From the UHGV virus genome UHGV-0029170: DNA of 36,552 nucleotides. One strand, 5' to 3'. This document shows, in pieces, positions 719-36,552 of this stretch. Each line of letters starts with the position of its first letter. Within the stretch, counting starts at the first letter, position 1. The notes below the pieces were generated by a model. The model worked only from the letters and a program-made list of their open reading frames with translations, was not told the DNA's origin and did not search any database. The translations under genes were made by a program, and so were the position numbers. Source of the DNA: a virus.

Positions 719-756
719 ACAGAGCAAATTTTATCGTGTTTAACAAAAAGTGCTGT
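700..756 (-). promoter_or_regulatory. Degenerate copy of the conserved cassette (Box A CAGCACTTTTTGTTAAAC) upstream of the helicase gene
   Basis: Reverse complement reads cAGCACTTTTTGTTAAACACGAT...TATTATAC, 20-30 nt upstream of helicase ATG at 677. Confidence 0.35.
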
Positions 757-767
757 GAGGTTAAATT

Positions 768-1169
768 ATGGAACAAATGGCAAAGGTAGACAAGCGAACT
801 TTGAACGGCAATAACGGGACGTCACGCGGGAAAGATAAGAAGCCCCGCAAGAAGCCGACAGGCTATTATGTCCTGAAGGATGAAGTAAGGGCGGGACTGA
901 CTACCAGAATGGAATTGGTGATCGAGGCATACGGCGGCATCGCCAAAACAGCAAAGGAGTTGGGCGTTAGCATCCAAGTTGTTCAGCAGTGGATTAAGCG
1001 CGGCATGATTTCAGCCGATGGTGCTTACTTGGTGCATAAGAGTTACCGCCGCAATGACTGCAAAGGCTTCAGGGCTTCATTTTGCCGCCCGGATCTCAGA
1101 TTCGACAGCAACGGCAAGCCGATTACGCGCCGATGCGACCGCCGCGAAATGCTCCGCGTAGTCCGATAG
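768..1169 (+). CDS. Putative HTH DNA-binding protein (Cro/YdaS-like motif), Arg-rich C-terminus
   Basis: ATG at 768 preceded by GAGG 8 nt upstream; segment IAKTAKELGVSIQVVQQWIKRG looks like a helix-turn-helix; function inferred. Confidence 0.4.
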   Translation: MEQMAKVDKRTLNGNNGTSRGKDKKPRKKPTGYYVLKDEVRAGLTTRMELVIEAYGGIAKTAKELGVSIQVVQQWIKRGMISADGAYLVHKSYRRNDCKGFRASFCRPDLRFDSNGKPITRRCDRREMLRVVR

Positions 1170-1189
1170 CACAATTTGACTAACTACCA

Positions 1190-2207: not shown

Positions 2208-2703
2208 TTAAAACGTGAACAAATTTTAGGTAAGATTGATGATTTCAGTCTTACCTTTTTTTATGCCAAAAATTCAGCAACTTACCAACTGGTCGAACCA
2301 CTTTAGGTAAGATTTAGTAAGATGAATCTTACGTAAATTTCGCGCAAAATTTAACCAATTACACGCCATATATAGATAGTAAGTATATGATAAATAATAA
2401 TATTATTATTATTTCTCTATCTCTCTATACTTATCTTGGTAAGATTTCTCCGGGGTACGTGTCTTTTTTCGCTGGATTTCGCGCCAGATTTTTCATGGAT
2501 ATTCACCTATAGGGATCTTACCATCTTACCGATTTGCGTTAACTTTATGAAATGTATGGAAAAAACCACGTAAGATGCATCTTACTAAATCTTACGTAAA
2601 TTTCGCTCATTTTTTGACCAACCGCAGATAGCACTTTTTGACTTGCGCCGGGAATCGTCATGCGTATACTTAACGAAACGAAACCACAAATGGAGCAATA
2701 TCA
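2208..2703. repeat. AT-rich non-coding region with GGTAAGAT iterons, palindromes and direct repeats; candidate origin of replication / regulatory hub
   Basis: No ORF; GGTAAGA-N13-TCTTACC (2229-2255); GTAAGAT-2nt-ATCTTAC at 2317-2332 and 2570-2585; 18-bp direct repeat ATCTTACGTAAATTTCGC at 2326-2343 and 2589-2606; tandem ATCTTACC x2 at 2515-2530; pure A/T core 2367-2435. Confidence 0.5.
2628..2685 (+). promoter_or_regulatory. Conserved cassette copy in plus orientation (ATAGCACTTTTTGACTTGC...TATACTTAACGAAACGAAAC) upstream of exonuclease gene
   Basis: Shares Box A, a TATACT hexamer and the CGAAACGAAAC tail with the minus-strand copies; followed by RBS GGAG and ATG 2704. Confidence 0.5.
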
Positions 2704-3750
2704 ATGGCTGAAGCAATTTTCAGGGCATACACAAGCAGTGAATTGACCAACGAGCAATATCACGATCCTAATTCCTGGTGCGCGGAGTACGTTAGCGGCT
2801 CAAGCCTCGGCGAGATTTACGCAACATCCCCGGCGCACTGGAAATACAAGGTGCGCGAGGAAACCGCCGCGCTGGCGTTCGGAACCTGTTCGCATACCTG
2901 TATGCTTGAGACGGCAAAATTTAATGGCGAGTACCTGCGGGCGACTTCTCCTGGCGAGGTTAAAGATCTGATTACGTCGAAGTCGGCATTGTCTGCGAAG
3001 CTGAAAGCGTGTGGCCTGATTGGGACGTCCAACAAGGATTACCCGGAACTTCTGGAAATGGCATATCGCGCCGGGATTGACGTAAATGTTTGGTGGGCGA
3101 TTGAACTTTGCGACGAAAGCGCCGCGATGAACTCCGGGCGCAAGCTGGTTAAGGATGTTGATTTCGATGCCGTTGTTCAAATGCGAAGCGTGATGCTGGC
3201 CAACCCGCGACACGCCGCGTGTATCGAATCGCCTACCGCACAGCGTGAATTGTCAATCTTCGGTGAGATCTTCGGCGTCAAGGTCAAGGTTCGACTCGAT
3301 CATGTTGACGTTGTTTCAGATCCAGAACTAATCAAGGAGTGTGGGTTCAACCCGGATGAGGTTTTCGAGGTCGTGGTGATTACCGACTACAAAACCACGC
3401 AATCTTCCAAGCCTGACGATTTCGGGCGACTCGCCTTCAACTTGGGCTACTATCTCAAGATGGCATTGCAGCGCGATCTGTTCGTGAAGACTTACAACGA
3501 AAAACGCCCGGTAGTTGTCAGACTGCTAACGCAGGAGAAAAAATCACCGTTTGCTCCGCTGGCGTTCACCCTGACCAGCCAGCAGATCGAGATCGGTCGC
3601 AAGCAGTATCAAAGCGTGATTCATCAGTATGCGGAATGCGTGAAGCATGATTCATGGCCATCATATGAGTCAAACGCGGCGGAAGTCGTTTTGCCTACTC
3701 CGCAGTTTGTGAAATACATGTTCCCGGACGTATACGGCACAAATAGCTAA
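2704..3750 (+). CDS. PD-(D/E)xK family nuclease (putative recombination exonuclease)
   Basis: 348-aa ORF with RBS; D-x(n)-D/E-x-K-like segment ...DHVDVV...VVVITDYKTT; immediately upstream of Erf and SSB. Confidence 0.55.
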   Translation: MAEAIFRAYTSSELTNEQYHDPNSWCAEYVSGSSLGEIYATSPAHWKYKVREETAALAFGTCSHTCMLETAKFNGEYLRATSPGEVKDLITSKSALSAKLKACGLIGTSNKDYPELLEMAYRAGIDVNVWWAIELCDESAAMNSGRKLVKDVDFDAVVQMRSVMLANPRHAACIESPTAQRELSIFGEIFGVKVKVRLDHVDVVSDPELIKECGFNPDEVFEVVVITDYKTTQSSKPDDFGRLAFNLGYYLKMALQRDLFVKTYNEKRPVVVRLLTQEKKSPFAPLAFTLTSQQIEIGRKQYQSVIHQYAECVKHDSWPSYESNAAEVVLPTPQFVKYMFPDVYGTNS

Positions 3751-3809
3751 ACACTGGTTCGCACTTGTGATATAGTGCGCATTACCAATCAGGAAAAGGA
3801 AACTTTATC

Positions 3810-4466
3810 ATGCGCACATCTGAAAAATTTACCACCATCGCAGCCGCATTAATCAAGGCAAAATCTGGCTTCGTGGCCGCAAAGAAAAGCGGGAAGAACA
3901 ACCATCTTGGGAACACCTATGCGAATCTTGGTGATATCCTCGACGCTATTTCCCCGGCGCTGGAGAAGAACAAAATTATGGTCATTCAATCCATGATGGA
4001 TACCAGCACCGAAAAGGTTATGCACCTCGAAACTATGTTTTTGCATGAAAGCGGCGAGTTCATGGCGTTTCAGTACAATATGCCGATCAGTAAAACAGTC
4101 GAGCAAGCATATGGTTCAACAACATCTTACGCCCGCCGCTATGCACTGGCCGCAGCACTTGGAATCAAGCAGGCGGATGATGATGCAGAAATTACGAAAA
4201 TGACACCGAAAGACTTCAAAAAACGCATTGACGCGTGCGAAGATCTCGAATCGCTTCGGGAGATCTATAAGATGGCGAAACAAACGTTAACGCCTGCGGA
4301 ATGGAAAATGACGGAAGACGATATCACCAAACGCCAGGCAGAACTGAAAGTCACCCCGGCGAACGGCTTCAACCCTGGTAAACCGCAAGAGGTTGCTAAA
4401 CGGGAGCCGGAAAAGGTAGAATCAAAGCCCGAACCAGAAGCGCAAGATATCTCATCTTTCAACTAA
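3810..4466 (+). CDS. erf: Erf-family single-strand annealing protein
   Basis: RBS AGGAAAAGGA before ATG 3810; GSTTSYARRYALAAALGIKQADDDAE matches the conserved Erf core (P22 Erf GATSSYARKY...GIDDAKDAD) from memory. Confidence 0.75.
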   Translation: MRTSEKFTTIAAALIKAKSGFVAAKKSGKNNHLGNTYANLGDILDAISPALEKNKIMVIQSMMDTSTEKVMHLETMFLHESGEFMAFQYNMPISKTVEQAYGSTTSYARRYALAAALGIKQADDDAEITKMTPKDFKKRIDACEDLESLREIYKMAKQTLTPAEWKMTEDDITKRQAELKVTPANGFNPGKPQEVAKREPEKVESKPEPEAQDISSFN

Positions 4467-4495
4467 TTTAACCGGCGGGAAACCGCCCCATAGGA

Positions 4496-4966
4496 ATGAC
4501 AATGCATGTTGTAACAGGTGTTATCCGAAAGGAACCGTATGTCAAGGAAGGCAGCAACAATAACGGGCTGTGGAAAATGTACGCCGTAGACCTGTCGGAG
4601 CGAATGAAGATCCGCAATCGTGATGGCCAGGACGAAACGGTTTACACGAACTACCGCGCCGTTTTCTTTGCCAAAGAAAACATGATTAAGTGGTACGACG
4701 AAGCGCTGCAAATTGATAAGGTGATCAGCGTCACCTGTCGGACGCTTCAGATCGTGAACCGCGAGCACAACGGCACAATTTACAGCCACAATGAAATGAT
4801 TATGCCGCAACTAGAATTCAGCCAGCGCGAACCTGCGCAAAGCGGCGGAGGCAATCAACAATCCGGATGGGGTCAGCCTCAGCAACCGAAGCCGCAGCAA
4901 GCGCCTAAACCGCAAAACAGCGGCGGGAATCCGGGGATGGATTTCGATGATGATATCCCGTTCTAA
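4496..4966 (+). CDS. ssb: SSB-like single-stranded DNA-binding protein with host-SSB-like C-terminal tail
   Basis: C-terminus ...SGWGQPQQPKPQQAPKPQNSGGNPGMDFDDDIPF ends in the E. coli SSB tip DFDDDIPF after a Gly/Gln/Pro-rich linker; N-terminal ~110 aa compatible with a divergent OB fold. Confidence 0.6.
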   Translation: MTMHVVTGVIRKEPYVKEGSNNNGLWKMYAVDLSERMKIRNRDGQDETVYTNYRAVFFAKENMIKWYDEALQIDKVISVTCRTLQIVNREHNGTIYSHNEMIMPQLEFSQREPAQSGGGNQQSGWGQPQQPKPQQAPKPQNSGGNPGMDFDDDIPF

Positions 4967-4977
4967 CTTGACAACTA

Positions 4978-5003
4978 AAGGAGCCGAAAGGCTCCTTTTT
5001 TTT
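4978..5003 (+). terminator. Rho-independent terminator after ssb
   Basis: GGAGCC-GAAA-GGCTCC hairpin (4980-4995) followed by T8 (4996-5003). Confidence 0.75.
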
Positions 5004-5059
5004 CCTGTTTATTGATGCTATTATCTTCGTTACTCAACCAACCAAAGAGGACTAAAAAC

Positions 5060-7246
5060 ATGGCACTATACAGAGAAGGCAAAGCGGCTATGGCCGCCGA
5101 CGGAACCGTTACCGGGACTGGCACAAAATGGCAATCATCGCTTTCGCTGATTCGCCCAGGCGCGACGATTGTGTTTTTATCGTCACCAATTCAAATGGCC
5201 GTCGTAAACAAGGTGGTCAGCGACACTGAAATTAAAGCAATTACCACAAGCAGCGCTGTCGTAGAGTCTACTGACTACGCGATCCTATTAAGTGACTCTC
5301 TGACCGTTGACGGACTGGCGCAAGATGTTGCGGAAACTTTGCGCTACTATCAGTCGCAAGAAACAGTAATTGCGGATGCGGTCGAGTTCTTTAAGGAGTT
5401 CGATTTCGAATCGCTACAAAATCTTGCCAACCAAATCAAGGCAGACTCCGAAGCTGCTGAATCAAGCGCCGAGGCTGCGGCGACGTCTGAAAGTAATGCT
5501 AAAACTTCAGAGACTAAAGCCAAAGAGTCTGAAAATGCGGCAAAAAGTTCAGAGGTAGCAGCGGAGACTGCAAGAGACCAAGTACAGCAGATCATCAATG
5601 ATGCTGGCGAGCAGTCAACGCTGGTTGCGCTTGCTTCACATACGTTGCCAGGAGCATCAAAAGTCGCTCTTGCTGACGGATTTCTGAACGACTACATAAA
5701 GGAAAAAACTTATGAGTCACTTGGTGCTAAATTCGATGGCATAAACGATGATACTGCTGCGATCCAGGCAGGAAATGAGCTTGTAAAGCAGGGTTATTTA
5801 GTAAAGGCAGTAACGCCAAACGGTAGGGCGAGGATTACTTCACAAGTAACATTTTATGCTGGTTCTGGAGCTGTTGACATGGGTACGGCTTATCTGAAGC
5901 CTGATAGGAATTTGATGACTACTGGCTATGCGGCAAGGGTTATTGGAGACAATACGAGAACATATAATCTTGGCAGCAGATTGATAATCAATATGATTGG
6001 CCCATATGGTGAAATAGGTGAAAAGCCACCTACTGACACCAGTAGTATTACTACGCAACTATGCGGCCTAAATATCGACCCAGGTACTAATACACAGGTA
6101 TCTAATTTGGATATTAGTTGGAAGATCTTTGGATTCATGAAAAACGTAAGAATTGGGAGCAAGTCTGTATATTTGATTCGCGCATGGGGGCCAATGCATA
6201 GCAAAGCATGGGTTTGCAATGTTGAGTTTGACTGTCAAAATGACGCTGGAGAAAATATTAACTTCTTCGGCGGCACTGGTTCAGATTGCAGGAACTCTGA
6301 AAAAACTGCGGCTGATATCTATTCAACATCTGCAGGTCATTTTTTAGGACTGAATCTTATTGGTTATAGTCAGGATTATAATGATGTTGATTTAGACATC
6401 AATGGTGGGTACGTTTATAAATTAGCTGGTCAATTTGAAAATAACTCATTACAGCCTTATGTAAAAATGTCATATACTGTCGGTAAGCGACACCCAACTG
6501 TAATACTACAAACAGTTAATATTGATGGTGGTAATGACCAGGCGCAGGAGGCGGGAAACACTGGACGTCCTGCATGGTTTAAGATTGGTAATGGATGTAT
6601 TTTTCATGCTGACGGTGGAACATGGGGTAAGTATGATAAAATGCACAACACAAAGTTATTTGATGTAAGCGCTAATGGGCCTATTGCACTTAGCGTAAAA
6701 AATATTTACTTCGATACTTATGACGGTGTTGATAGCATAGAATGGGGAGCGCACGGAAACCCGATTAGGAATTATGATTTTAGCGATCACTCATTATCTG
6801 GTTGGAAAACAGAATATACATACCCATCAGGTGGTACACCAGTACCTCCGACGATAACGTATGACGATTCTAAGCCAATAGGAAAAGCAGTTAAAATTTC
6901 ATCGTCAGTTAGCAACGGTGGAACAACGACGCTATTCGGTCAGAAGATACCAGTAACTCCTGGAGGCATACTTTACATGTCCACAAATCTTTATTGGGAA
7001 AATATAGTCACAACAAACGGAACAGCATATTTCGGATATACGTTCTATGATGCATTTGGTGATGAAATAACGCACAACAACATAGGTGTAAACTTGAATT
7101 TGCAGCCAGCAAACGCTACAGCACCAGTTTTGTGCTCTGGTAGGGTGCGCATTCCTTCTGGTGCGGCATTTGTGCATGTTGGAATTCGCCATTATCAGAT
7201 GAGCGGAGATGTATGGATGGGTAAGATGAATGCATTTGTTCAATGA
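5060..7246 (+). CDS. Lateral tail fibre / tailspike with pectate-lyase-like (depolymerase-type) central domain; mosaic
   Basis: ATG at 5060 with AGAGGA RBS (ORF track start 5012 lacks RBS); Ala/Ser/Glu-rich fibre-like stretch; motif [17 protein letters not shown] typical of beta-helix pectate-lyase-like tailspikes; sequence after ~5.65 kb is markedly AT-rich by eye. Confidence 0.7.
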
Positions 7247-13750: not shown

Positions 13751-16729
13751 TTAACCCCTCGTTTTCTCGTTTACGTATTTCGCAATGCGTCCGTTTTGGC
13801 TTAGTGCCTCCGTGAACATATCATTAACGATCTGCCTTACGCCCTGCTCTAAGCCCTTGCTATCCTGACCGGAACCCATCGTGATGTTCACGTCACCCAT
13901 GCTAAACACCATTGCTGCCGATGCCGCAACATTCCCGCCATTCGTCACACCAGATCCTGACGAACCGTTAGAGCCTACCAGACCGCCGGAAGCATATCCA
14001 CGCATCAGCCTGTATAAATTTTCCGGCCCTAATCGGCTGGTCGCCTCTTTGGTAAAGACGAATTCGCCGCCATGCACAACGCCTTTAGGTTCGTACTTGC
14101 CACCGTTGCCAGTATAGCCGCCGTTGGCGAACCCTTTGCTGAACATGCTGGCGAAGCTGAACGTACCGCCGCCGCCGAACGCAGCAGACATTGCATTGAA
14201 CAGCGCCATTTTGATTAGCATGCTGGTAATGTCACTAATCACGCTTCTGGCGAAGTCGCTGAAGCTGGCCTTACCCGTCATGACAAAATCAGTTAGCACG
14301 CTCGCCATCCCGTTAAATGCGTTTTTGGTGATGCTCCCGATATTGGAGTACACGTCATTAACTTCGTTTCCAATGTCAGCCCAGGCATGCGTGAATCCCG
14401 CTTTCCAGTCAAGCATCTGCGCATCCTGCTGCGCGTAAAACTGTTCGCTTGCTGCCTGCATCTGCTTAAATTGGGCGTCGTCAAGCGATCCTCCATTATT
14501 CTTCCAGTCCGCCGCCATCTGCGCGTTTGCCCTGTAGCGCTCCTGCTGCTTACTCCCCATCCCGGCGGTATCCTGAAGCGCTTTTGTTTTCTCAGCCATC
14601 TGGTTCTGATACTTCACCGACTTGTCAAGCAAGGCGTTCAGGCGCTGCTGCCTGACAATCTGATCGCCCACGATCGCTTTCTGTTCCGCCATAGCGATGA
14701 TACTTTGCTTATTGGCTAACATCTGCTTTTCGCTCTGCGTCAGCTTACGCTTGGCGCTCGCTTCTTCCAGCACCTGGAATTTTGCGACAGTGGTAAAGTA
14801 GTCTTTACGCTGCTGGCTGATTTTGTCGTCAAGCCCTTTGTGCTGCTGCAATACTTTCAACTGCGCCTGTAATGACAGCAATTCGGACTGATACTGTTCA
14901 TCGATCTTAACCCCGGCGTCTACCTGCTCCTTCCTGGCGTTTCGGTTCTTCAGGATATCCTTTTCTTCCTGATTTACCTTATCCTTTGTTGCACTGCTGT
15001 AGCCGCCGGACACGTTTTTGTTTTTGGCCGCGTCAATGTAACCCATTTCGCCTTTCGCGATCCTTGCCTGCTGCTCCGCAATGGTCTTCGCCAGTTCCGC
15101 TGATTTGGCTTTGGAATCCTTGATTAGCTGTTCTTGCTGTGCAAGAAAATCATTCCCAAAGTCACCCATGCCAGGCACTTTCTGCAACTGCCGACCAGCA
15201 TCAACGATGAATTGTGCGATCATGGCGTCGCCATCCGCAATCAGTTTCCTGATAACGTTGATGATAGATGAAACCGTATCAACAATAAGGTTTAGCGCGC
15301 CGACGGTGTGATCACCTACCCACTTCCAGGAGTCTGCGGCCCACTTTTTAATGTCAGTCCACATCGTTTCAAGCGGCGTTGCGCTGTCTGCGATATCCTT
15401 CAGGCGTTTATCCATCGTGTCAGCAAAGATTTTCGTTGCCGCTTCCGCTGCTGCCGTCTCACCTTTGGTTTTTCGCAAAGATTCGATGTAGGTTAACTGC
15501 CCTTCCTTTAGGAAATTAAACTGATCATTCAGTTCGGCAAGCCCCTTAACCGGATCCTTTGCTATAGAGTCAAAGTAACCAGTAATGGTCTTTTCGCTCT
15601 CACCGGTCTGCGCCGCCCATTCCGCCGTAGTCTTCGTGATCGCCTTAATCTGGTTGATGCTGTATTTTCCAGATTGAGCCAGTGACGTTGCGATCGCCTG
15701 AATGCTTACGACAGTAGCCGATGATGTTTTGTTGATTTCATCGGTTAGGGAGGTGATTTGCCCGGTAGTTGTTGCAGCATAGCCACCAGTCAGCACCAAT
15801 GCATTCGCTAGATCTCGCTGTGACTTCCAGGAGTCGTACCCAGCTTTGGCGATAGCCGCAAGAGCAACACCCAAAGCAACCGCGCCAACTGTTAGCGGAT
15901 TAATGTAGCTCAACAAAACTTTGAACGTGTTCCCGATACCGCCGAAGCTATCCTTGATTTGCCCGCCTTGCTGAATAGCCACTAACCATACTGGCATCCC
16001 GGAAGCAAGAGACGTTACTACGTCAGTGATCTGCGCCGGAAGTTGGCGCATCGCCATTTTATATTGACCTGCTGAAATTCCAGCAAGCCCCATAGCATTC
16101 TGCTGTTTCTTTAACGCCTGCTCTTGCTGCTTCATGGCGTTAATGAACGGTGCCGATTCAGTTGAAACGCCTAATTGTGCCGCCTTCATTTCCAGCAGTT
16201 CGGCGCGAGTCTTGCCGATCGAGTCTGCTTGCTGTTTCAGGCTGGCGACAAAATCACGCCCGGCGTTGGTCGCCTTCTGCTTCGCCTCAGCCTCAGCGAT
16301 TGCCGCGCGGCCTTCTTCGGTTAGTGCCAACTGCTGCTGTCTCAGCTTGTTGGTGGTCGACTCAATGACAGCACCCAGGCGGAAGAATTCCTTATCTGGC
16401 ACAAGGCCCAATTGCCAGGCCTTATCCAGTTCTTCCGAAGCCTTGCGCAAGTTAGCCATTTTTGCGATCGTGGGATCGATAGCGCCCGCGATGTTGTTGA
16501 AATTGGTCTTGGCCTTTTCCGTGGTTTTCTTTTGGTTCTGCAACGCGCGGTTCATTTCCTCAGTCTGCGCCGTCGCGCGCTTCTCAGCGTCCGCCAGCGA
16601 CTGAAGACCCGCCCCGGTTTGTTGGCTTTGGTTCTTTAGTTCGGCAAGTGATCGCACCGCTCTGTCAACCTGCGACACGTCAACGCCGAACGTCAAGCCA
16701 GCTACTTTATCAGCCATGTTAGCCCCCAT
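13751..16729 (-). CDS. Tail tape measure protein
   Basis: 992-aa ORF, largely coiled-coil (Ala/Gln/Lys-rich heptads) with Gly-rich C-terminal part, located between chaperone G/GT and M; start probably at internal MADKV (16717). Confidence 0.85.
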   Translation of the reverse strand: MGANMADKVAGLTFGVDVSQVDRAVRSLAELKNQSQQTGAGLQSLADAEKRATAQTEEMNRALQNQKKTTEKAKTNFNNIAGAIDPTIAKMANLRKASEELDKAWQLGLVPDKEFFRLGAVIESTTNKLRQQQLALTEEGRAAIAEAEAKQKATNAGRDFVASLKQQADSIGKTRAELLEMKAAQLGVSTESAPFINAMKQQEQALKKQQNAMGLAGISAGQYKMAMRQLPAQITDVVTSLASGMPVWLVAIQQGGQIKDSFGGIGNTFKVLLSYINPLTVGAVALGVALAAIAKAGYDSWKSQRDLANALVLTGGYAATTTGQITSLTDEINKTSSATVVSIQAIATSLAQSGKYSINQIKAITKTTAEWAAQTGESEKTITGYFDSIAKDPVKGLAELNDQFNFLKEGQLTYIESLRKTKGETAAAEAATKIFADTMDKRLKDIADSATPLETMWTDIKKWAADSWKWVGDHTVGALNLIVDTVSSIINVIRKLIADGDAMIAQFIVDAGRQLQKVPGMGDFGNDFLAQQEQLIKDSKAKSAELAKTIAEQQARIAKGEMGYIDAAKNKNVSGGYSSATKDKVNQEEKDILKNRNARKEQVDAGVKIDEQYQSELLSLQAQLKVLQQHKGLDDKISQQRKDYFTTVAKFQVLEEASAKRKLTQSEKQMLANKQSIIAMAEQKAIVGDQIVRQQRLNALLDKSVKYQNQMAEKTKALQDTAGMGSKQQERYRANAQMAADWKNNGGSLDDAQFKQMQAASEQFYAQQDAQMLDWKAGFTHAWADIGNEVNDVYSNIGSITKNAFNGMASVLTDFVMTGKASFSDFARSVISDITSMLIKMALFNAMSAAFGGGGTFSFASMFSKGFANGGYTGNGGKYEPKGVVHGGEFVFTKEATSRLGPENLYRLMRGYASGGLVGSNGSSGSGVTNGGNVAASAAMVFSMGDVNITMGSGQDSKGLEQGVRQIVNDMFTEALSQNGRIAKYVNEKTRG

Positions 16730-21326: not shown

Positions 21327-21407
21327 GTGAAACTCCTGTTTGTGTGTTTTGACTTAACGAGATGAAGAATAGCACGAATTGCTAAACGGTCAAAGGTTTT
21401 TTTAACG

Positions 21408-29558: not shown

Positions 29559-29621
29559 GTTTCGTTTCGATGGGGTAACTATACCAGCTTACCCCCGATC
29601 GGTTTTAGCAATTCGTGCTAT
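29559..29621 (-). promoter_or_regulatory. Conserved promoter/operator cassette copy
   Basis: Minus strand: ATAGCACGAATTGCTAAAACCGATCGGGGGTAAGCTGGTATAGTTACCCCATCGAAACG. Confidence 0.5.
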
Positions 29622-29817
29622 TTGGCAGGCCATCCATGACTTTCAGTTTAACCCACTCGATGCGCCCCTGCGCCTCGGCAATGCCTAACTCATAACTCGC
29701 GCCTTTCTGGTGAGGGCGAACCCGCCAGCGTTTGCCGCCCTCATCGCACCAGTAATAGAACTTCCCGCGAAAGCGCACGTTGTAGGTAAAGCCGTTGAAC
29801 CACATTTTGATGTTCAT
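29605..29817 (-). CDS. Hypothetical protein (basic, Trp/Tyr-rich)
   Basis: 70 aa; stop TAA lies inside Box A of the downstream cassette. Confidence 0.4.
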   Translation of the reverse strand: MNIKMWFNGFTYNVRFRGKFYYWCDEGGKRWRVRPHQKGASYELGIAEAQGRIEWVKLKVMDGLPNSTNC

Positions 29818-29825
29818 GTATCACC

Positions 29826-30050
29826 TCACCACTTAAAATTGCGGGAAATGATCACGCTGCCAACGGCGGAAAGTGCAATCCAGGGCCAGCACAACACAGG
29901 ATAAAGATCGTCTTTGTCGGTAGAGTCCGCAGATTTCAGGAAGGCCCGCGTGAGGAAACAGCCGCACGCATACAGGGCCAGAATAAGAACCACCAGGGCA
30001 ATAATTGCGTAAATCATGATGTTTTTCCTTGTCTTTGGTGGGGTAGCCAT
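29826..30050 (-). CDS. Small membrane protein (two predicted TM segments)
   Basis: IMIYAIIALVVLILALYACGCF and WPWIALSAVGSVIIS hydrophobic stretches; RBS GGAG 7 nt before ATG 30050. Confidence 0.4.
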   Translation of the reverse strand: MATPPKTRKNIMIYAIIALVVLILALYACGCFLTRAFLKSADSTDKDDLYPVLCWPWIALSAVGSVIISRNFKW

Positions 30051-30082
30051 GCAGCAACTCCGGTTAGTGTTTGTGGTTCGTG

Positions 30083-30403
30083 CTATTGCTGGAGTTTTGC
30101 GAAGGCGTCGGCCATCATGCGCAAAACTCGCGCGTGATCTTCAACGTCATAGCCAGGTTCGGTGCGCATGATTTCCCGAATCTTCTCGATCGTGGCGATA
30201 GCCTCCTGAAGTTCACCAGTCAGGAAAGCAACCTGCTGTTCAAGCTCCGCTATTCGTGAGAACGGTTCACGCATGAATGATTCGCACGAGGCATCACTAA
30301 GAGCCCAATCGATCCCGGCGCGAATAACGGCTTTTAACAGCGGGTCGTCGTCTTTGGCGAAGTTGTCGGACGGGATCAGGTGTATGATTTGTGTGGTGTT
30401 CAT
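30083..30403 (-). CDS. Hypothetical protein
   Basis: Start set to ATG 30403 (MNTTQII...) because ORF-track start lies inside the upstream cassette. Confidence 0.4.
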   Translation of the reverse strand: MNTTQIIHLIPSDNFAKDDDPLLKAVIRAGIDWALSDASCESFMREPFSRIAELEQQVAFLTGELQEAIATIEKIREIMRTEPGYDVEDHARVLRMMADAFAKLQQ

Positions 30404-30430
30404 GGTTAGGATCCATCTCTTGTTAGTGTT

Positions 30431-30479
30431 GGGATAGTATGCACCATCCCCGGACGTTCGTTTTAGCAATTAGTGCTAT
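30431..30479 (-). promoter_or_regulatory. Conserved promoter/operator cassette copy
   Basis: Minus strand: ATAGCACTAATTGCTAAAACGAACGTCCGGGGATGGTGCATACTATCCC. Confidence 0.45.
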
Positions 30480-30967
30480 CAAAGGGCGTCTAATTCCGCC
30501 TCAATGAATTCGTACCACTCGTGGCCGTTTGCGGGATCGTGTTCGGTTCCATGCAGCCAGTCCGTATGGGTGGAACAGAATTCGCCGGATTTGTTGAAGT
30601 AAAAGTCGGCCCATGACCGCGCCCAATCGCCGACGCCAGCGAACGTGCCGAACTTGCGGATGTATGCGTCGGTGTATCCGCGCTGCTTCGCTATGCGCTT
30701 CAGTGCGCGAACCAGCAACTTACGCGGAGACGCCTTTGACACTTTCCGCAGGTGGAAAAGCGCGTTTTCCGGCTCGCTACCAACACGGATGGTCAAATCT
30801 TCGTCAGCATCCAGCGGATTGACGATAAATTCGTTAAGGTATCCGCCCTGGATTACGTGCGCTGTGCCTAGTGGCTCGCGCACCTCGACGGCATCGAATA
30901 CGCAGCCGATAAGGTGGCGCTCACGTTCGCGGGCCGCATTGACAACCATAAGTTTGACGGTTTTCAT
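30479..30967 (-). CDS. Hypothetical protein
   Basis: 162-aa ORF; start ATG overlaps stop of upstream gene (TAATG). Confidence 0.45.
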   Translation of the reverse strand: MKTVKLMVVNAARERERHLIGCVFDAVEVREPLGTAHVIQGGYLNEFIVNPLDADEDLTIRVGSEPENALFHLRKVSKASPRKLLVRALKRIAKQRGYTDAYIRKFGTFAGVGDWARSWADFYFNKSGEFCSTHTDWLHGTEHDPANGHEWYEFIEAELDAL

Positions 30968-31185
30968 TATCGGATCTCCTTCACCTGGTGAACTTCGAGA
31001 AGGTTGGTTACTTCACGGATGCCGCAGTCCTCGAATTCCTCTTCGGCCCCTGCTGCCACCCTTAATCTGGTAAACCCGGCGTCATCGTCGATTGCGACTT
31101 CAATAACCTGCTCGCTCGAAAGCTCGATGTATGCGCAGCCGTAGGAATTCAGCTCTTCCAGCAGTGCGATTAAATTGTCGTTCAT
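30967..31185 (-). CDS. Hypothetical small acidic protein
   Basis: 72 aa, net charge about -12 (DDD, EEEFED runs); ATG 31185 with AGGAG RBS. Confidence 0.45.
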   Translation of the reverse strand: MNDNLIALLEELNSYGCAYIELSSEQVIEVAIDDDAGFTRLRVAAGAEEEFEDCGIREVTNLLEVHQVKEIR

Positions 31186-31212
31186 TGCGTTGCTCCTGAT
31201 TGGATTGTTCAC

Positions 31213-31268
31213 TTCAGTAACGCCACTTTATCAAATGACGTTACGGCAGTTTTAACAAAAAGTGCTAT
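31213..31268 (-). promoter_or_regulatory. Conserved cassette copy (variant with GTAACG...CGTTAC inverted repeat)
   Basis: Minus strand: ATAGCACTTTTTGTTAAAACTGCCGTAACGTCATTTGATAAAGTGGCGTTACTG. Confidence 0.45.
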
Positions 31269-31450
31269 TCTTTTTCGCCGCTGAACGCTGCCCGATACCC
31301 ACGGCGGAACCCGTTAATCTCCGACAGGCGGCATACGCCAATAATCATGCACAGCATTCCGATCGTCTGCCAGCCTACGTGGTCATGCAGTGCCAGGCCG
31401 CCCAGGAAGAAAGCCCAATACAGCGCGAGTTTCTTTTTGCTTACTTTCAT
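31265..31450 (-). CDS. Small membrane protein
   Basis: 61 aa; hydrophobic LALYWAFFLGGLAL and IGMLCMIIGV segments. Confidence 0.4.
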   Translation of the reverse strand: MKVSKKKLALYWAFFLGGLALHDHVGWQTIGMLCMIIGVCRLSEINGFRRGYRAAFSGEKE

Positions 31451-31692
31451 ACTTTCACCTCAAATAGAACGTTGTTTTCGTATGGCCTATTGGCATACAT
31501 GGCGATCTTTTCGTCCGGCATACGGCAGGCGGGCCAGAATTCTTCGTCCTCAGTAGTTACCTGGTCGTCCTGCAAAATCCATACTTCATCAAGGCCAGGG
31601 CCGAACCTGGCTTCATACTCGCGGCCAGGTGTGAAATAGGTGGATAGCGGCGAATAGCCAGCGTGCGTGCAAATTACTTTTACCGTTTCCAT
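31447..31692 (-). CDS. Hypothetical protein
   Basis: 81 aa; start overlaps upstream stop (TAATG). Confidence 0.4.
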   Translation of the reverse strand: METVKVICTHAGYSPLSTYFTPGREYEARFGPGLDEVWILQDDQVTTEDEEFWPACRMPDEKIAMYANRPYENNVLFEVKV

Positions 31693-31994
31693 TAGTAGAT
31701 CCCGTTAGTCCAAACGTAGCCGTGTTCGATTATCTCGCGCAGCTTAACCTTCTTCGGCGCTGGATTTACTCCGTCTCCGCCAGTGTAGAACCCTGTTCCA
31801 TACGCAAAATGAACCTGCTTCGCGAACAGTCCGCCGCGCGCCTGGATGTAAAGTCGGTTGCGCATGGCCAGACCTCTAAGCGTGTTGACCTGCTCGATGG
31901 GGTCGCCTTTTACATTCGAGATCTTGCACATTACTGGCTTTTCGCCAAATTGCCCGGTTAAGCAGTGGCGGTCGAAGTCTGATAAACGTATCAT
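31692..31994 (-). CDS. Hypothetical protein
   Basis: 100-aa ORF in the co-directional array. Confidence 0.4.
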   Translation of the reverse strand: MIRLSDFDRHCLTGQFGEKPVMCKISNVKGDPIEQVNTLRGLAMRNRLYIQARGGLFAKQVHFAYGTGFYTGGDGVNPAPKKVKLREIIEHGYVWTNGIY

Positions 31995-32003
31995 CCAGAC
32001 ACC

Positions 32004-32375
32004 TCAAAGCTGATTTGCAAAGATGTGCCAGACGTGATCTTCTGGCGTGCGTTTCATTAGTTTGTGCGCCTTGCGTGCCATGCGCTTATAGTCGCGGGCG
32101 GTAAGTTTCGTGGGGTCGGCAACGAACGATTCAACAATTAACCCATCGCAATGATATTCCGGCAGCCATTCCCGATGGGTTCGCCATTCGTTGAAAGTGG
32201 TTAGCTGGATAACGGAATGCAAGTCACTGTGAAGGTGCTCCCCGCGCTCGCCGTAATGGAAAGCTCCGCGAATTTTGCCATCATTGCCTACGTGCAAAAG
32301 GTGAATGCGGCTTTTCTTGCCTTCGAAGTTGGTTCCGACGATGGCGACAACTGCGTTTTTGACGATCTGCTTCAT
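32004..32375 (-). CDS. Hypothetical protein (His-rich)
   Basis: 123 aa; first ORF downstream of cassette copy 32400-32448. Confidence 0.45.
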   Translation of the reverse strand: MKQIVKNAVVAIVGTNFEGKKSRIHLLHVGNDGKIRGAFHYGERGEHLHSDLHSVIQLTTFNEWRTHREWLPEYHCDGLIVESFVADPTKLTARDYKRMARKAHKLMKRTPEDHVWHIFANQL

Positions 32376-32399
32376 GGTGAATCTCCGTTGTTTGGTGTA

Positions 32400-32448
32400 T
32401 GGCCATTATGCCCGATCTGCTGACCGGGCGTTTAGCAAAAAGTGCTAT
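32400..32448 (-). promoter_or_regulatory. Conserved promoter/operator cassette copy
   Basis: Minus strand: ATAGCACTTTTTGCTAAACGCCCGGTCAGCAGATCGGGCATAATGGCC. Confidence 0.5.
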
Positions 32449-32646
32449 TCAGAAACAGAGCGCCTCACGCTCCAGGCTGGCCAGTGACGGAAAGCTGAAT
32501 TTTGTAACGTGGTACGAGCCGCCAACATAGCCGGAAATGCTGATATTGTTGAACTCAACCTCAACACTGATAATCTTCATGTTCTTGCTGAAGGCGTACA
32601 TTGCAAGCGCACGGTGCGCCCGCGCCAGGAATTCGAATTGGTTCAT
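32449..32646 (-). CDS. Hypothetical protein
   Basis: 65 aa; ATG overlaps upstream stop (ATGA). Confidence 0.35.
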   Translation of the reverse strand: MNQFEFLARAHRALAMYAFSKNMKIISVEVEFNNISISGYVGGSYHVTKFSFPSLASLEREALCF

Positions 32647-32900
32647 TTAAAGATCGCCCCTTTGATTTTGTTCCAGAAAGCGAATGGCTGACGCTGCGGC
32701 TTCAGTTCCACGATATCGTGATCATAGAATCCGCGATGCTTGCCGCAAAGGAGCGGCTGCACGCCATCCGTTACCATATCGCCAATGAAGAACCGCTTGC
32801 CGCTATCCATGAAGTAAAGGCCGTGGCATACGCCTGGCGCGGCATGAGTTGCGGTATCTGGCAGGCTGTATACCCTGCCGCGAGATTTGAATTGCTGCAT
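32643..32900 (-). CDS. Hypothetical protein
   Basis: Start set to ATG 32900 (MQQFK...) with AGGAGA RBS. Confidence 0.4.
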   Translation of the reverse strand: MQQFKSRGRVYSLPDTATHAAPGVCHGLYFMDSGKRFFIGDMVTDGVQPLLCGKHRGFYDHDIVELKPQRQPFAFWNKIKGAIFK

Positions 32901-32941
32901 TATCCTGTCTCCTTGCATAATTTGGTCGTTAATCGACTTCG

Positions 32942-32990
32942 TGATAATTATGCCCGATCCTCTGACCGGGCGTTTAGCAATGCGTGCTAT
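32942..32990 (-). promoter_or_regulatory. Conserved promoter/operator cassette copy
   Basis: Minus strand: ATAGCACGCATTGCTAAACGCCCGGTCAGAGGATCGGGCATAATTATCAC. Confidence 0.5.
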
Positions 32991-33307
32991 TTCAGGCCGC
33001 GAAGGTCAATCTTCGATCTTGCCCAATCAGGGAAGCGAGCCATTTCGCCAACCTGAACCATTTTGTTTCCGCCCGGCCCCTTATCCACCCATGAATCAGG
33101 CGAGTAGCTCAGTAGGCGAACATTTTCAACGGTCGACTCATAGGCCCAAATCGCCCCGTCTTCATCAATGGCAACCGTGTTAGTCCAAACTGGCACGTCA
33201 AGCGACTGCATATCGAACGTGCCAGGGATGTTAATCTGGAAGGCTACAACGTGGCGCTGCGTGATGGTGGCCACTACTTGCTCGCCGGATTTAACTTCGT
33301 TAATCAT
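32987..33307 (-). CDS. Hypothetical protein
   Basis: Start set to ATG 33307 (MINEVKSGEQ...) with AAGGAG RBS. Confidence 0.4.
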   Translation of the reverse strand: MINEVKSGEQVVATITQRHVVAFQINIPGTFDMQSLDVPVWTNTVAIDEDGAIWAYESTVENVRLLSYSPDSWVDKGPGGNKMVQVGEMARFPDWARSKIDLRGLK

Positions 33308-33317
33308 TGCGTTCTCC

Positions 33318-33530
33318 TTACAGGAACATTCCAGCCAGGCGCAGGCGGGTAATGATGCTATCCCGTTTAGCGCGCAGGCCATCATAGTAATCTTCCAGTT
33401 GCGCATCCCATGACGGCAGGTCAAGCATAAGATTCATTTCGTTGCACACCACCTTCAGCGCGTGGAAGTGTTGCTCTACCGCGCGACGGTGAAATGCTGC
33501 ATTGAGTGGGTTGTTTTGGTTGCCGATCAT
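33318..33530 (-). CDS. Hypothetical protein
   Basis: 70 aa; first ORF downstream of cassette copy 33545-33602. Confidence 0.4.
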   Translation of the reverse strand: MIGNQNNPLNAAFHRRAVEQHFHALKVVCNEMNLMLDLPSWDAQLEDYYDGLRAKRDSIITRLRLAGMFL

Positions 33531-33544
33531 GTTTACGCTCCTCT

Positions 33545-33602
33545 GTTTCGATGGGGTAATGATAGCGCATCACCCCGATTGCGTTTTAACAAAAAGTGCT
33601 AT
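33545..33602 (-). promoter_or_regulatory. Conserved promoter/operator cassette copy
   Basis: Minus strand: ATAGCACTTTTTGTTAAAACGCAATCGGGGTGATGCGCTATCATTACCCCATCGAAAC. Confidence 0.5.
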
Positions 33603-34093
33603 TACTGTGGGATCTGGAAGCAGAGTTCCCGCCAGTTGCGATGCTCGCGGCCAGTGTTGCCCAGGAAGCAGACTGTTCGCGCAATGTGGCCGTACTGCTC
33701 CGAACCGCGAATCCATTCGCCCAGGTAATCATTCGCGTCGTCGTCATCCGGCAGGCAGTGGCGCGGGCGCATCTTGAATGCGAAGACGTCGCCGTTACCG
33801 TCGATGGCAATGTGGGTGGCCCCGCCCTGGATGGCCGTCTGTGCGGTTGCAGTCGTGGTGCTTTTGTCGATGCCAGCCAGGAAGTTAGAGAATTCGTTCA
33901 TGGCCATGCTCTTTTGCTCCGGCTCCGCCTCGACAAGCAGAAGTGTATCGTTGCCGACCATCGCAAAGAAGATCGCCGCTGTCATATTCGACTTCTTCAC
34001 AATCTTGCCTTCGCGCTTGCGCATCATCACTGCGTCATCTTCCAGCCAGTAAATCAGGCCATTAAGGGTGTTGAGGTATTCGCGAGATTTCAT
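33602..34093 (-). CDS. Hypothetical protein
   Basis: 163 aa; RBS GGAGCA before ATG 34093; first ORF downstream of cassette copy 34110-34169. Confidence 0.45.
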   Translation of the reverse strand: MKSREYLNTLNGLIYWLEDDAVMMRKREGKIVKKSNMTAAIFFAMVGNDTLLLVEAEPEQKSMAMNEFSNFLAGIDKSTTTATAQTAIQGGATHIAIDGNGDVFAFKMRPRHCLPDDDDANDYLGEWIRGSEQYGHIARTVCFLGNTGREHRNWRELCFQIPQ

Positions 34094-34109
34094 TGTGGTG
34101 CTCCGTTGT

Positions 34110-34169
34110 TCGTTTCGATGGGGTTACTATAGCAAGCCGCCCCGATCGTGTTTTAACAAAAAGTGCTAT
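34110..34169 (-). promoter_or_regulatory. Conserved promoter/operator cassette copy (extended -10-like TGCTATAGT)
   Basis: Minus strand: ATAGCACTTTTTGTTAAAACACGATCGGGGCGGCTTGCTATAGTAACCCCATCGAAACGAAC. Confidence 0.5.
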
Positions 34170-34381
34170 TTGAAGTTGTGAACCTGGTTCCCGCCGCTGT
34201 GGTCGTCAATGTCAACGCCGTCGCAGGTGACGTAAAAGCCGCGAATTACGGTGAAGCGCCACTTGCCTAACCAGTGGAAGTATACGCCGTGCTCGCTGCC
34301 ATGGACGGCTTTGGTTGATGAGTATGGGATCGGCATCCCGGCGAAGGTGCGAAGTTTGGTTGTTGCTGAAAATCGTGGCAT
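34166..34381 (-). CDS. Hypothetical protein
   Basis: ORF 34166-34387; start probably ATG 34381 (AGGAGG RBS 7 nt upstream). Confidence 0.4.
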   Translation of the reverse strand: MPRFSATTKLRTFAGMPIPYSSTKAVHGSEHGVYFHWLGKWRFTVIRGFYVTCDGVDIDDHSGGNQVHNFK

Positions 34382-34450
34382 GGCCATTCCTCCTGGCGTT
34401 TGCCGTGCTGGTGGTGGGAATATAGCGCCACCGAAGCGGCGCTATTGTGA

Positions 34451-34558
34451 TTATTTACCCTGGCGCGCAAGGTAGCGCTCTTTGAGTTTCTGCCAGTGCC
34501 AGCGCATAACGTGTTCGTTATGGTAGTTGCTGGTTGAATATGGATTCTTCTTGCTCAT
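34451..34558 (-). CDS. Very small basic protein, about 35 aa (not in ORF track)
   Basis: Hand translation MSKKNPYSTSNYHNEHVMRWHWQKLKERYLARQGK; GGAG 8 nt upstream of ATG 34558; fills gap between neighbouring genes. Confidence 0.25.
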   Translation of the reverse strand: MSKKNPYSTSNYHNEHVMRWHWQKLKERYLARQGK

Positions 34559-34575
34559 CTTCATCTCCAGGTTGC

Positions 34576-34761
34576 TTACTTGATTCGAACTTCAACTTCA
34601 ATGTCGGACTGCGGCGCGAAGAGTTGGGCCTTTCCATTAACGCGAATGGTAAGAATGTTCCCCTTGCGATCTGCTGCGAGAACCAGGCGAAACTTGCCAG
34701 CAAACTTAACCATCATTCCCGGCTTAACTTCGCTCATCTTGATAACCTTATCCATCTTCAT
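34576..34761 (-). CDS. Hypothetical small protein
   Basis: Start set to ATG 34761 (MKMDKVIKM...) with GAGGTGA RBS; first ORF downstream of cassette copy 34770-34830. Confidence 0.4.
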   Translation of the reverse strand: MKMDKVIKMSEVKPGMMVKFAGKFRLVLAADRKGNILTIRVNGKAQLFAPQSDIEVEVRIK

Positions 34762-34769
34762 CACCTCAG

Positions 34770-34830
34770 TTCGTTGTCGATGGGTAAATAATACCGGATC
34801 TCGCCATCGGCGTTTTAGCAAAAAGTGCTA
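34770..34830 (-). promoter_or_regulatory. Conserved promoter/operator cassette copy
   Basis: Minus strand: ATAGCACTTTTTGCTAAAACGCCGATGGCGAGATCCGGTATTATTTACCCATCGACAACGAAC. Confidence 0.5.
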
Positions 34831-35037
34831 TCTTTCCACCTCGTGCATATCGCCAACCGAAAGATAATAAGCGATATCAAGGCGGCTCATTGTGGGATGA
34901 GGCCAGCCGCATTCATGCCAGATAACATCGCCCTCGCCTTTAGTCCACATGGTTTCGCCATCCCAGCGCCAAAGGCGGTTATTGAGGCGCGATCCGTAGA
35001 CCGCGCCAGGTTTTACATCGCTCGCCTTAAAATTCAT
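34828..35037 (-). CDS. Hypothetical protein
   Basis: ORF 34828-35088; likely start at internal ATG 35037 (MNFKASDVKPG...). Confidence 0.35.
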   Translation of the reverse strand: MNFKASDVKPGAVYGSRLNNRLWRWDGETMWTKGEGDVIWHECGWPHPTMSRLDIAYYLSVGDMHEVER

Positions 35038-35179
35038 AATCGACAACCCCGAACTCGTTAACGATCTGCGCCTTGTAAAAGCCACCATTTGCCGCCAGAT
35101 TGTAGCACGCCGCCACGGTCTCGAACTCGCGCACTTCCGGCTTGCTGTTTTCGTGTTCCCAGGTAATCAGAGTAATCAT
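35027..35179 (-). CDS. Hypothetical small protein, about 50 aa
   Basis: Start set to ATG 35179 (MITLITWEH...) with GAGGAAACC RBS, because ORF-track start lies inside the upstream cassette. Confidence 0.35.
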   Translation of the reverse strand: MITLITWEHENSKPEVREFETVAACYNLAANGGFYKAQIVNEFGVVDYEF

Positions 35180-35191
35180 TTCGGTTTCCTC

Positions 35192-35255
35192 GGTTCGTTG
35201 TCGATGAAGAGATAATACCCGATCGCTCTGACCGGGTTTTAACAAAAAGTGCTAT
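35192..35255 (-). promoter_or_regulatory. Conserved promoter/operator cassette copy
   Basis: Minus strand: ATAGCACTTTTTGTTAAAACCCGGTCAGAGCGATCGGGGTATTATCTCTTCATCGACAACGAAC. Confidence 0.5.
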
Positions 35256-36093: not shown

Positions 36094-36287
36094 GTGTTTC
36101 CCCCACATTTACGGCGTTTGTGTGTGTTTGGTAAGGCTATCTTACTGGCTCAAGGCCTTGTCGTCAAAGGGTTTGTGCGTGTGTGGTAAGATTCGGAAGC
36201 ATCCCCTATATACCCCTTTACATATATCGCGCGGCGGAACATCTAAAATTTACGGCTCTCGCAAGATGATTCCGGTAGCCATGCCGG

Positions 36288-36420
36288 GAGAAATCTTACC
36301 AAACATATATAGATAGAGAGAGTAATAATAATAATATTGTTATTTATCATATACTTATATATTTATTATAGTCTTATATTGGTCACTTTTTGTGCAATTT
36401 TCAGGTAAGATTTTTCCTCC
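36288..36420. repeat. AT-rich core flanked by inverted GGAGAAATCTTACC / GGTAAGATTTTTCC arms; partial inverted copy of 2367-2452
   Basis: 36288-36357 matches the reverse complement of 2367-2452 over ~70-85 bp (shared GGAGAAATCTTACCAA...AATAATAATAATATTRTTATTTATCATATACTTA); second arm at 36404-36417. Confidence 0.5.
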
Positions 36421-36552
36421 CCCACATTCCCACACGACGCAAGTGTTGGTGAAACACACCTGACGTTTTGCTGGCTTCGAGCGGCAAATTATGTGCATGG
36501 TGCATACATCTATGCAATTCGTTGCACATCATGAAGCACTCCATCATCACAT

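Follow-up and report, generated by a model that had tools for sequence, protein, structure and literature searches.

A T1-type recombination operon and the putative promoter repeat ahead of it in a Webervirus-like Klebsiella phage genome

A three-gene recombination operon

We analyzed the UHGV virus genome UHGV-0029170, a stretch of 36,552 nucleotides (nt) that we will call the window. Positions 2704 to 4966 contain three open reading frames (ORFs) in a row on the plus strand, whose products we classify as a nuclease like RecE, an annealing protein of the Erf family, and a divergent single-strand-binding protein (SSB). The features of this locus are listed in Table 1. A prior reading of the same DNA from its letters alone (the sequence-only reading) had proposed a three-gene recombination module here, and three co-directional ORFs do lie at exactly these positions. 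It had described the module as a two-component phage recombinase, that is, a PD-(D/E)xK exonuclease plus an Erf annealase, with its own SSB. Matches to Pfam, to PHROG, to alignment profiles, and to known folds agree with that description. In particular, both the annealase and the nuclease have Pfam matches (84 bits to PF04404 and 58 bits to PF12684), and the lack of such matches was what the sequence-only reading had named as evidence that would count against it. As in other two-component modules, the nuclease and annealase genes are adjacent and co-directional, and their order is maintained in related phages. The gaps between the genes are short: 59 nt between the exonuclease gene and erf and 29 nt between erf and ssb.

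The segment belongs to a well-sampled group of phages. Across positions 2500 to 5100, the window shares 96-97% DNA identity with completely sequenced Klebsiella phages, among them phi1_146047, CBB98, Sweeny, and MezzoGao. We found 356 phage records that match the segment, and 341 of these cover at least 80% of its length. According to the records for Sweeny and KpV522, the closely matching phages are members of Webervirus, a genus of T1-like siphoviruses in the Drexlerviridae. In many of the matching records, the three genes are already labeled as exonuclease VIII, Erf-like ssDNA annealing protein, and single-strand DNA binding protein, and the record for Sweeny equates them with T1 gp29, gp28, and gp27. 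We also considered whether the segment might derive from a prophage or from E. coli itself, and we rejected this because megablast found no match to it in E. coli genomes. Judging by sequence similarity, the module is very probably the ordinary recombination operon of a Webervirus (T1-like, Drexlerviridae) phage of Klebsiella and corresponds to T1 genes 29, 28, and 27. This operon is already known: it traces to T1 genes 27-29. Because it is already routinely annotated in hundreds of deposited Webervirus genomes, its rediscovery carries little scientific weight. The one part that merits further attention is the non-canonical, promoter-like repeat that precedes it.

The operon has clear ends. 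Just past the ssb gene lies an intrinsic terminator with a 9-base-pair (bp) stem that includes five G-C pairs, a GAAA loop, and a T run (folding energy of -16.4 kcal/mol, z = -3.2). A terminator is annotated at the same position in Sweeny, and in T1, terminators follow ST27 at the corresponding place. The strong terminator that had been proposed at 4978-5003 is thus confirmed. On the other side, the primase gene is closed by an intrinsic terminator with an even more favorable folding energy (-17.7 kcal/mol, z = -4.3), and its equivalents are annotated in Sweeny and KpV522. Terminators are found only outside the three-gene block, not within it, and they enclose it on both sides. Since the block is framed by the terminators at 2228-2256 and 4977-5003, we view the module as a bounded unit.

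The start of the ssb gene could be either of two ATG codons. ATG 4502, which gives a product of 154 amino acids, is more likely than ATG 4496, because the AGGA sequence abuts ATG 4496 but sits 6 nt before ATG 4502. Related proteins have 153 to 156 amino acids. Residue numbers below refer to the 156-residue form.

Table 1. Positions of the operon's genes and signals in the window
Feature	Position	Strand	Remarks
Copies of the repeat core in the window	744-756 (-), 1166-1178 (+), 2628-2640 (+), 21369-21381 (+), nine in 29609-35255 (-)
Terminator closing the primase gene	2228-2262 (hairpin to 2256)	+	Intrinsic; 12-bp stem, then T7
Copy of the Drexlerviridae repeat ahead of the exonuclease gene	2626-2646	+	Reads caGATAGCACTTTTTGACTTGCG; family ATAGCACnnnTTG / ATAGCACnnnTTGnTAAAA
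-10-like hexamer TATACT	2665-2670	+	21 nt downstream of TTGACT (2638-2643)
Shine-Dalgarno GGAG	2692-2695	+	8 nt before the exonuclease start; ribosome binding site annotated at the same place in Sweeny
Exonuclease ORF	2704-3750	+	348 amino acids; orthologue of T1 gp29
Shine-Dalgarno-like AAGGAAA	3796-3802	+	Ahead of erf; read from the sequence
Erf ORF	3810-4466	+	218 amino acids; orthologue of T1 gp28 and SECphi27 Gp77
Shine-Dalgarno-like AGGA	4492-4495	+	Abuts ATG 4496; 6 nt before ATG 4502
SSB ORF	4496 (or 4502)-4966	+	156 amino acids from ATG 4496; orthologue of T1 gp27
Terminator ending the operon	4977-5006 (hairpin 4977-4998)	+	Intrinsic; AAAGGAGCC-GAAA-GGCTCCTTT, then T run

The exonuclease

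The first protein matches the Pfam family PF12684 (DUF3799, PDDEXK-like) with 58.2 bits, well above the cut-off of 26 (E = 1.4e-15), and it matches the exonuclease VIII family of PHROG (PHROG 412) with E = 2.7e-97. It is also similar to NCBIfam's model for exodeoxyribonuclease VIII (NF007259, E = 3e-11), but only to positions 613-862 of the 877 in the model. The family is widespread: tblastn finds it in 1,641 phage records.

A search with the single sequence against the sequences in the PDB found nothing. We collected 197 relatives with E ≤ 1e-3, including the proteins from T1 and Rtp, and aligned 38 of them to build a profile. This profile matches RecE (PDB 3H4R) with E = 3e-7, and it pairs the ITDYKTT segment of the phage protein with IMDVKTT of RecE, so that D228-x-K230 aligns with the DVK of RecE. 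Four residues, H64, D199, D228, and K230 (the last three in RLDHVD ... ITDYKTT), are invariant across the 38 relatives. For RecE, we take the catalytic residues to be those assigned from the work on 3H4R.

The predicted structure leads to the same family. The AlphaFold2 model is of high confidence (mean predicted local distance difference test score [pLDDT] of 91.7; predicted template modeling [TM] score of 0.83) and has a RecE-like fold. Its top match in the PDB, as found with Foldseek, is again 3H4R (E = 8.4e-9, TM score of 0.68 on the target, about 17% identity), followed by the nucleases Cas4, AddB, AdnA, and Exo5, which are all PD-(D/E)xK enzymes. Sequence profiles and modeled structure together identify the product of 2704-3750 as a RecE-like (exonuclease VIII-type) PD-(D/E)xK nuclease with predicted exonuclease activity, as had been proposed from the sequence alone.

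The phage system and RecE/RecT of the E. coli Rac prophage have in common the two-component logic of exonuclease and annealase and, by both profile and fold, a C-terminal PD-(D/E)xK domain. However, the phage protein corresponds only to the nuclease domain of about 260 amino acids within the 866 of RecE, its partner belongs to the Erf family rather than the RecT family, and the phage operon adds an SSB.

Two other features of the nuclease can be seen in the alignment. A lineage-variable insertion of up to about 25 residues (around residues 203-222) lies between the strand with D199 and the strand with D228-x-K230; it is missing from the shortest, Rtp-type relatives and is longer in T1-type relatives. 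And where RecB-family nucleases have their canonical QxxxY motif, this family has an invariant K252-M-A-L-Q256.

The annealing protein

In the second protein, residues 11-132 match PF04404 with 84.2 bits (cut-off of 25, E = 1.2e-23), and the Erf families of PHROG match as well (PHROG 155 with E = 6e-46, and also the Erf-like PHROG 2324). Among solved structures, one is matched by sequence: Gp77 of phage SECphi27 (PDB 9Y6U/9Y9C), with E = 2.3e-44 across residues 1-217. It is 40% identical to Gp77 along the whole protein, and in the N-terminal 130 residues the identity rises to 46.5%. Gp77, a structural homologue of P22 Erf, assembles into a 24-mer ring; the protein is essential to its phage, and its gene adjoins a putative SSB gene (PMC13017515). 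The product of 3810-4466 is, by sequence, an Erf-family single-strand annealing protein, in agreement with the annealase of the sequence-only reading. It has the Pfam ERF domain in common with Gp77 and P22 Erf, and we predict both annealing activity and ring formation.

Gp77 is also the trigger of the defense RNase RAZR (PMC13017515). At residues that the RAZR study locates at or close to the interface of Gp77 and RAZR, or at escape sites, the Erf of this phage differs by L20G, S31N, D41G, D53K, and E55K. Because the SECphi27 orthologue is both essential and the trigger of RAZR, variation in Erf could bear on RAZR-type defense and, in turn, on which hosts a therapeutic Klebsiella phage can infect. 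Within residues 19-55, two of the interface or escape sites, S19 and V22, are the same as in Gp77. D53K and E55K put the opposite charge where a salt bridge has been proposed.

The divergent SSB

The third protein is the most divergent of the three. In a remote-homology search, it matches the SSB family PHROG 44 with E = 3.1e-28, and its N-terminal domain alone still matches with E = 2.1e-18. An AlphaFold2 model built with 26 relatives has a confident, beta-rich domain at residues 1-109 (pLDDT of 80-94) with a single helix at residues 61-70. The following residues, 110-151, have pLDDT below 50: they include a disordered linker rich in Q, G, and P (110-148), which gives way to an acidic tip. 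When the model was compared to the PDB with Foldseek, nearly all of the 25 matches with E ≤ 1e-3 were OB domains of bacterial SSB or PriB. More broadly, the top 50 structural neighbors were almost all SSB or PriB, including complexes with ssDNA.

The C terminus reads MDFDDDIPF, which is identical to the tip of SSB from Klebsiella and from E. coli. A DD(D/N)IPF tip is present in all 26 of the aligned relatives and is the most conserved part of the family. The T1 orthologue, ST27, is 41% identical and ends in FDDDIPF. We conclude, from the modeled structure, that the product of 4496-4966 is an SSB of divergent sequence, built in the usual three parts of OB domain (1-109), linker, and tip, and that it is predicted to bind ssDNA. 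The PHROG match, the OB-fold model, and the host-identical tip all support the proposal that this phage encodes its own SSB. The layout is the same as that of the bacterial SSBs of E. coli and Klebsiella (PF00436), but the phage protein is shorter (154-156 amino acids, versus 178 for the E. coli SSB chain in the PDB), and its OB domain is not detected by Pfam's SSB model.

The sequence-only reading had also called this protein a chimera. A recent fusion with a host ssb gene is not supported by a search that covered E. coli genomes. When the 3' region of the gene (4800-4975) was compared with 5,426 of these genomes by sensitive blastn, the matches were no longer than 44-50 nt, with 77-82% identity and E = 2-7, and the match to E. 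coli ssb itself spans roughly 44 nt, of which 82% are identical (E = 7). The linker motif GWGQPQQP of the host's SSB is also present in SSB orthologues from other sources. What remains of the chimera is a standard SSB layout in which only the tail is host-like in sequence.

Conservation of the gene order

The order exonuclease-erf-ssb is preserved in T1, in the Warwickvirus JLBYU10, in the Braunvirinae phage TR3, in the Salmonella Skatevirus BS5, and in more than 300 Weberviruses. JLBYU10 has one extra small ORF in the block, and some genera of Drexlerviridae have an extra small ORF between the exonuclease gene and erf. The preserved blocks end either at a terminator or at a convergent tail-fiber gene. 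In Vibrio phage BUCT006, the gene after the homologous nuclease encodes another protein, which has no annotation.

Within the Drexlerviridae, T1 (gp29/gp28/gp27), TLS (Gp51/Gp53/Gp54), Rtp, and SECphi27 (Gp75-78) all have the same protein families in the same order with a terminator at the end. Between the window and T1, the exonucleases are about 50% identical. However, the location of the block differs. In the window, it comes after the primase gene and runs in the same direction as the fiber gene, and in Weberviruses it is found between the primase and tail-fiber genes; in T1, its orientation is reversed and it is on the far side of the tail-fiber gene, with which it converges. Since the T1 block is both inverted and relocated, the block moves as a unit, and by its gene order it behaves as a movable one.

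A repeat with a fixed distance to a -10-like hexamer

The exonuclease gene is preceded by a member of a repeat family that is found across the Drexlerviridae. In phage TLS, the 21-nt direct repeat aaATAGCACnnnTTGnTAAAA is located about 76 nt upstream of start codons, and it is also found in T1 and Rtp; the 2024 paper lists its function as an open question (PMC11447400). In the window, the core ATAGCACNNNTTG of the exonuclease gene's copy lies exactly 76 nt before ATG 2704, which matches the distance in TLS. T1 and TLS have the same repeat family (ATAGCACnnnTTG). There are 11 perfect copies of the core in the window and 14 with at most one mismatch, compared to 2.3 expected; T1 has 16 perfect copies. 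The copy ahead of the exonuclease gene is a variant member: it lacks the 3' TAAAA of the repeat and reads TTGACTTGCG instead of TTGnTAAAA, whereas the other copies in the window keep TAAA(A).

Of the 28 perfect copies from the window and T1 together, 22 have a -10-like hexamer at a distance of exactly 22 nt from TTGNNN, and 24 have one at 21-23 nt. The distance is 21 nt in the exonuclease gene's copy and 23 nt in one T1 copy. By our own estimate, about 0.5 copies would have such a hexamer at any one fixed spacing by chance. This phasing, which holds in two genera, is our own observation; the passages of the TLS paper considered here do not mention it (PMC11447400). Nearly every copy is oriented with the gene downstream of it, and a similar leader and ribosome binding site follow.

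Sequence conservation gives the same picture. In seven Weberviruses whose spacers between the primase and exonuclease genes are only 84-96% identical, the ATAGCACTTTTTG core and TATACT are invariant, while nearby positions of the spacer vary. (The A of TTGACT is replaced by C in some of the seven.) We propose that 2626-2670 is probably a promoter of a non-canonical, family-specific type. The repeat and the fixed -10 element without a canonical -35 element point to a non-canonical promoter class that is possibly activator dependent.

We can extend this proposal, though only tentatively, to an uncharacterized promoter class throughout the Drexlerviridae. Such promoters would have ATAGCAC-N3-TTG at about -51 to -39, at a fixed distance of 21-22 nt from the -10 element, and no -35-like hexamer at the canonical position. 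We lean somewhat against so broad a class. If it does exist, then its recognition would require more than sigma-70 contacts, such as a phage activator or appropriator or an unusual contact with the alpha subunit, and the recombination genes would share their temporal class with the early small genes.

One copy of the repeat in the window, on the plus strand at 21369, is antisense among late genes on the minus strand and leads directly into a terminator hairpin; comparable antisense copies are found in T1 at 15086 and 18850.

A proposed role for the operon

The operon is most likely used to join the ends of the genome and to build the DNA chains that are needed for packaging. We base this on analogy to characterized systems, namely those of RecE/RecT, lambda Red, and P22 Erf, as well as to SECphi27 Gp77. 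Transcription would start about 27 nt upstream of the exonuclease's ATG, most likely, from the ATAGCAC-N3-TTG repeat and TATACT, and would stop at 4977-5006. The phage's DNA would be packaged by the headful mechanism and be terminally redundant. After injection, the exonuclease would resect the 5' strands at double-strand ends, and SSB would coat the exposed 3' single strands; its DDDIPF tip could engage proteins that normally dock on the host's SSB. Erf, as a ring, would then anneal complementary single strands. The result would be a circularized genome and, later, concatemers for headful packaging. In T1, the recombination genes are needed for concatemer formation, as known from classical T1 genetics. 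Our search of the literature on the genetics of RecE and Erf in T1 found only secondary mentions. The exonuclease, annealase, and SSB are also candidates for a recombineering set that is adapted to Klebsiella.

Alternative explanations

Several observations weigh against the functions that we assign to these proteins. The activities are carried over from homologues that are 17-40% identical (RecE and Gp77) or, for the SSB, from the fold alone. The nuclease falls far short of the equivalog cut-off of NF007259 (42 bits versus 1269): by sequence, it is a homologue of only the C-terminal nuclease domain of RecE and is no equivalog of RecE. The third protein as a whole has no match to PF00436 at E up to 0.1, and its residues 1-112 have none at E up to 10. 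It scores just 14 bits against TIGR00621, whose cut-off is 54. We identified 477 relatives, and none of the 120 that were listed has a precomputed Pfam domain; many of the relatives are encoded on contigs of 45-52 kb. Sequence similarity to SSBs of solved structure (7F2N from Klebsiella and 1EQQ from E. coli) is limited to residues 110-156, and when the profile of 26 relatives was compared to SSBs in the PDB, only the tail was matched. Because the SSB models of Pfam and NCBIfam miss this protein, its OB fold is visible only by structure prediction, and the structural matches are modest, with TM scores of 0.5-0.6, root mean square deviations of 6-7 Å, and 11-21% identity in the alignments. One could thus argue that the third protein is mainly a decoy or adaptor, whose tip competes for or recruits the partners of the host's SSB and whose OB domain binds, for instance, Erf or the exonuclease. 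The strong conservation of the tip would fit this idea, and the T1 record names the orthologue a hypothetical protein. However, the match of the N-terminal domain alone to an SSB family (2e-18) speaks against a decoy, as do structural neighbors that are almost all SSB or PriB and include ssDNA complexes. Bacterial SSBs have precisely this combination of OB domain, linker, and tip, and a position after the annealase gene is typical of phage SSBs. We consider a decoy or adaptor to be improbable. A role for the nuclease that is separate from Erf, mainly in the degradation of the host's chromosome or in anti-defense, with its adjacency to erf being historical, seems more doubtful still. The TLS paper does list host genome degradation by T1-like phages as an open question (PMC11447400), the nuclease's fold is common to Cas4, AddB, and Exo5, which have other roles, and in BUCT006 the homologous nuclease has a different neighbor. 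But the best match by both sequence and fold is RecE, the resection partner of RecT, and the exonuclease-erf(-ssb) order is kept in at least five genera of phages, even where the block is inverted or moved. We put very little weight on this alternative and retain a nuclease that would resect DNA for Erf.

The promoter is less certain than the proteins. The sequence-only reading placed a "cassette-type promoter" at 2628-2685, and this site does belong to a repeated cassette, but it is not a canonical sigma-70 promoter. A simple scan for the sigma-70 consensus calls nothing there because TTGACT and TATACT are 21 nt apart, rather than the canonical 16-18 nt, and the sequence at the canonical -35 position matches TTGACA at just three of six positions. 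We therefore rejected a canonical promoter at this location. Furthermore, the annotators of KpV522 placed their promoter about 100 nt further upstream, at the equivalent of window positions 2545-2575, and the exonuclease gene of T1 has a canonical TTGACT-N17-TATAAT directly upstream in place of the repeat. Perhaps, then, the operon is not driven by 2628-2670 at all: the ATAGCAC repeat might be an operator, a stoperator, or an enhancer-like site, and the three genes might be expressed from some other promoter within the spacer or through transcription that continues past the primase gene. The TLS paper mentions a stoperator, an enhancer-binding site, and an UP element as possibilities for the repeat and reports few canonical promoters in that genome (PMC11447400), and the loss of the 3' TAAAA from the exonuclease gene's copy also sets that copy apart. 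Against this, most copies from two genera have a -10-like hexamer at one fixed distance, and the copies point in the direction of the downstream gene and precede similar leaders and ribosome binding sites. The invariance of TATACT and of the core in seven Weberviruses, amid variable positions, also favors a promoter at this site, and the strong terminator between the primase gene and the module speaks against read-through. So, we think it unlikely that the operon is driven from elsewhere, and we prefer a putative promoter at 2626-2670.

The upstream spacer

The non-coding spacer of about 500 nt between the primase and exonuclease genes (2208-2703) contains another set of repeats. Half of the window's 20 copies of the heptamer GTAAGAT/ATCTTAC lie within it (10 copies), and just 2.8 copies would be expected in the entire window. 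These copies include two 16-bp palindromes, GTAAGATGAATCTTAC (2317-2332) and GTAAGATGCATCTTAC (2570-2585). An AT-rich core (about 2380-2429) has heptamers on both sides, and nearly all of the copies are identical in the seven Weberviruses, while their surroundings vary. Candidate roles for the heptamers are as operators for a helix-turn-helix regulator (encoded at 768-1169) or as iterons of a replication origin. The TLS paper reports no origin-type iterons in that genome (PMC11447400).

Part of the spacer is present twice. An element of about 130 nt, with an AT-rich core that includes "ATATATAGATAG" and flanking GTAAGAT sites, occurs in inverted orientation at 2296-2460 and 36270-36425, and a 50-nt core is 92% complementary between the two. 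The second copy is at the start of a cluster of small early genes on the minus strand. Two AT-rich regions of T1 are analogous, one upstream of the exonuclease gene (29900-30300) and one at the left end of the genome (120-520), but their repeated motifs are different; the six copies of TGTAACA in T1 are all within these two regions. When we aligned the AT-rich cores of the window with those of T1, they had little in common beyond AT-richness, and homology was not demonstrable.

We considered whether the spacer is an obligatory part of the module and rejected this as a general rule, since it is absent from TR3, BS5, and BUCT006. It does accompany the block in T1, with a different heptamer, and JLBYU10 keeps only a gap of about 310 nt.

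Other features of the operon and its 3' flank

Both of the gaps within the operon contain small hairpins. CGCACT-N8-AGTGCG (3760-3779), between the exonuclease gene and erf, overlaps a weak promoter-like site (3748-3776), and GGCGG-GAAA-CCGCC (4474-4487) is just 5' of the ribosome binding site of ssb. These hairpins may influence the stability or translation of the mRNA.

Directly past the operon's terminator, and ahead of the tail-fiber gene (which begins at ATG 5060 or 5090), is an extended -10-like motif, TGcTATTAT (5016-5024). T1 has a terminator followed by TGnTAnAAT at several junctions between late genes (8312, 22784, and 24963). This arrangement of a terminator and then an extended -10 is consistent with the "transcripton" layout that was described for T1.

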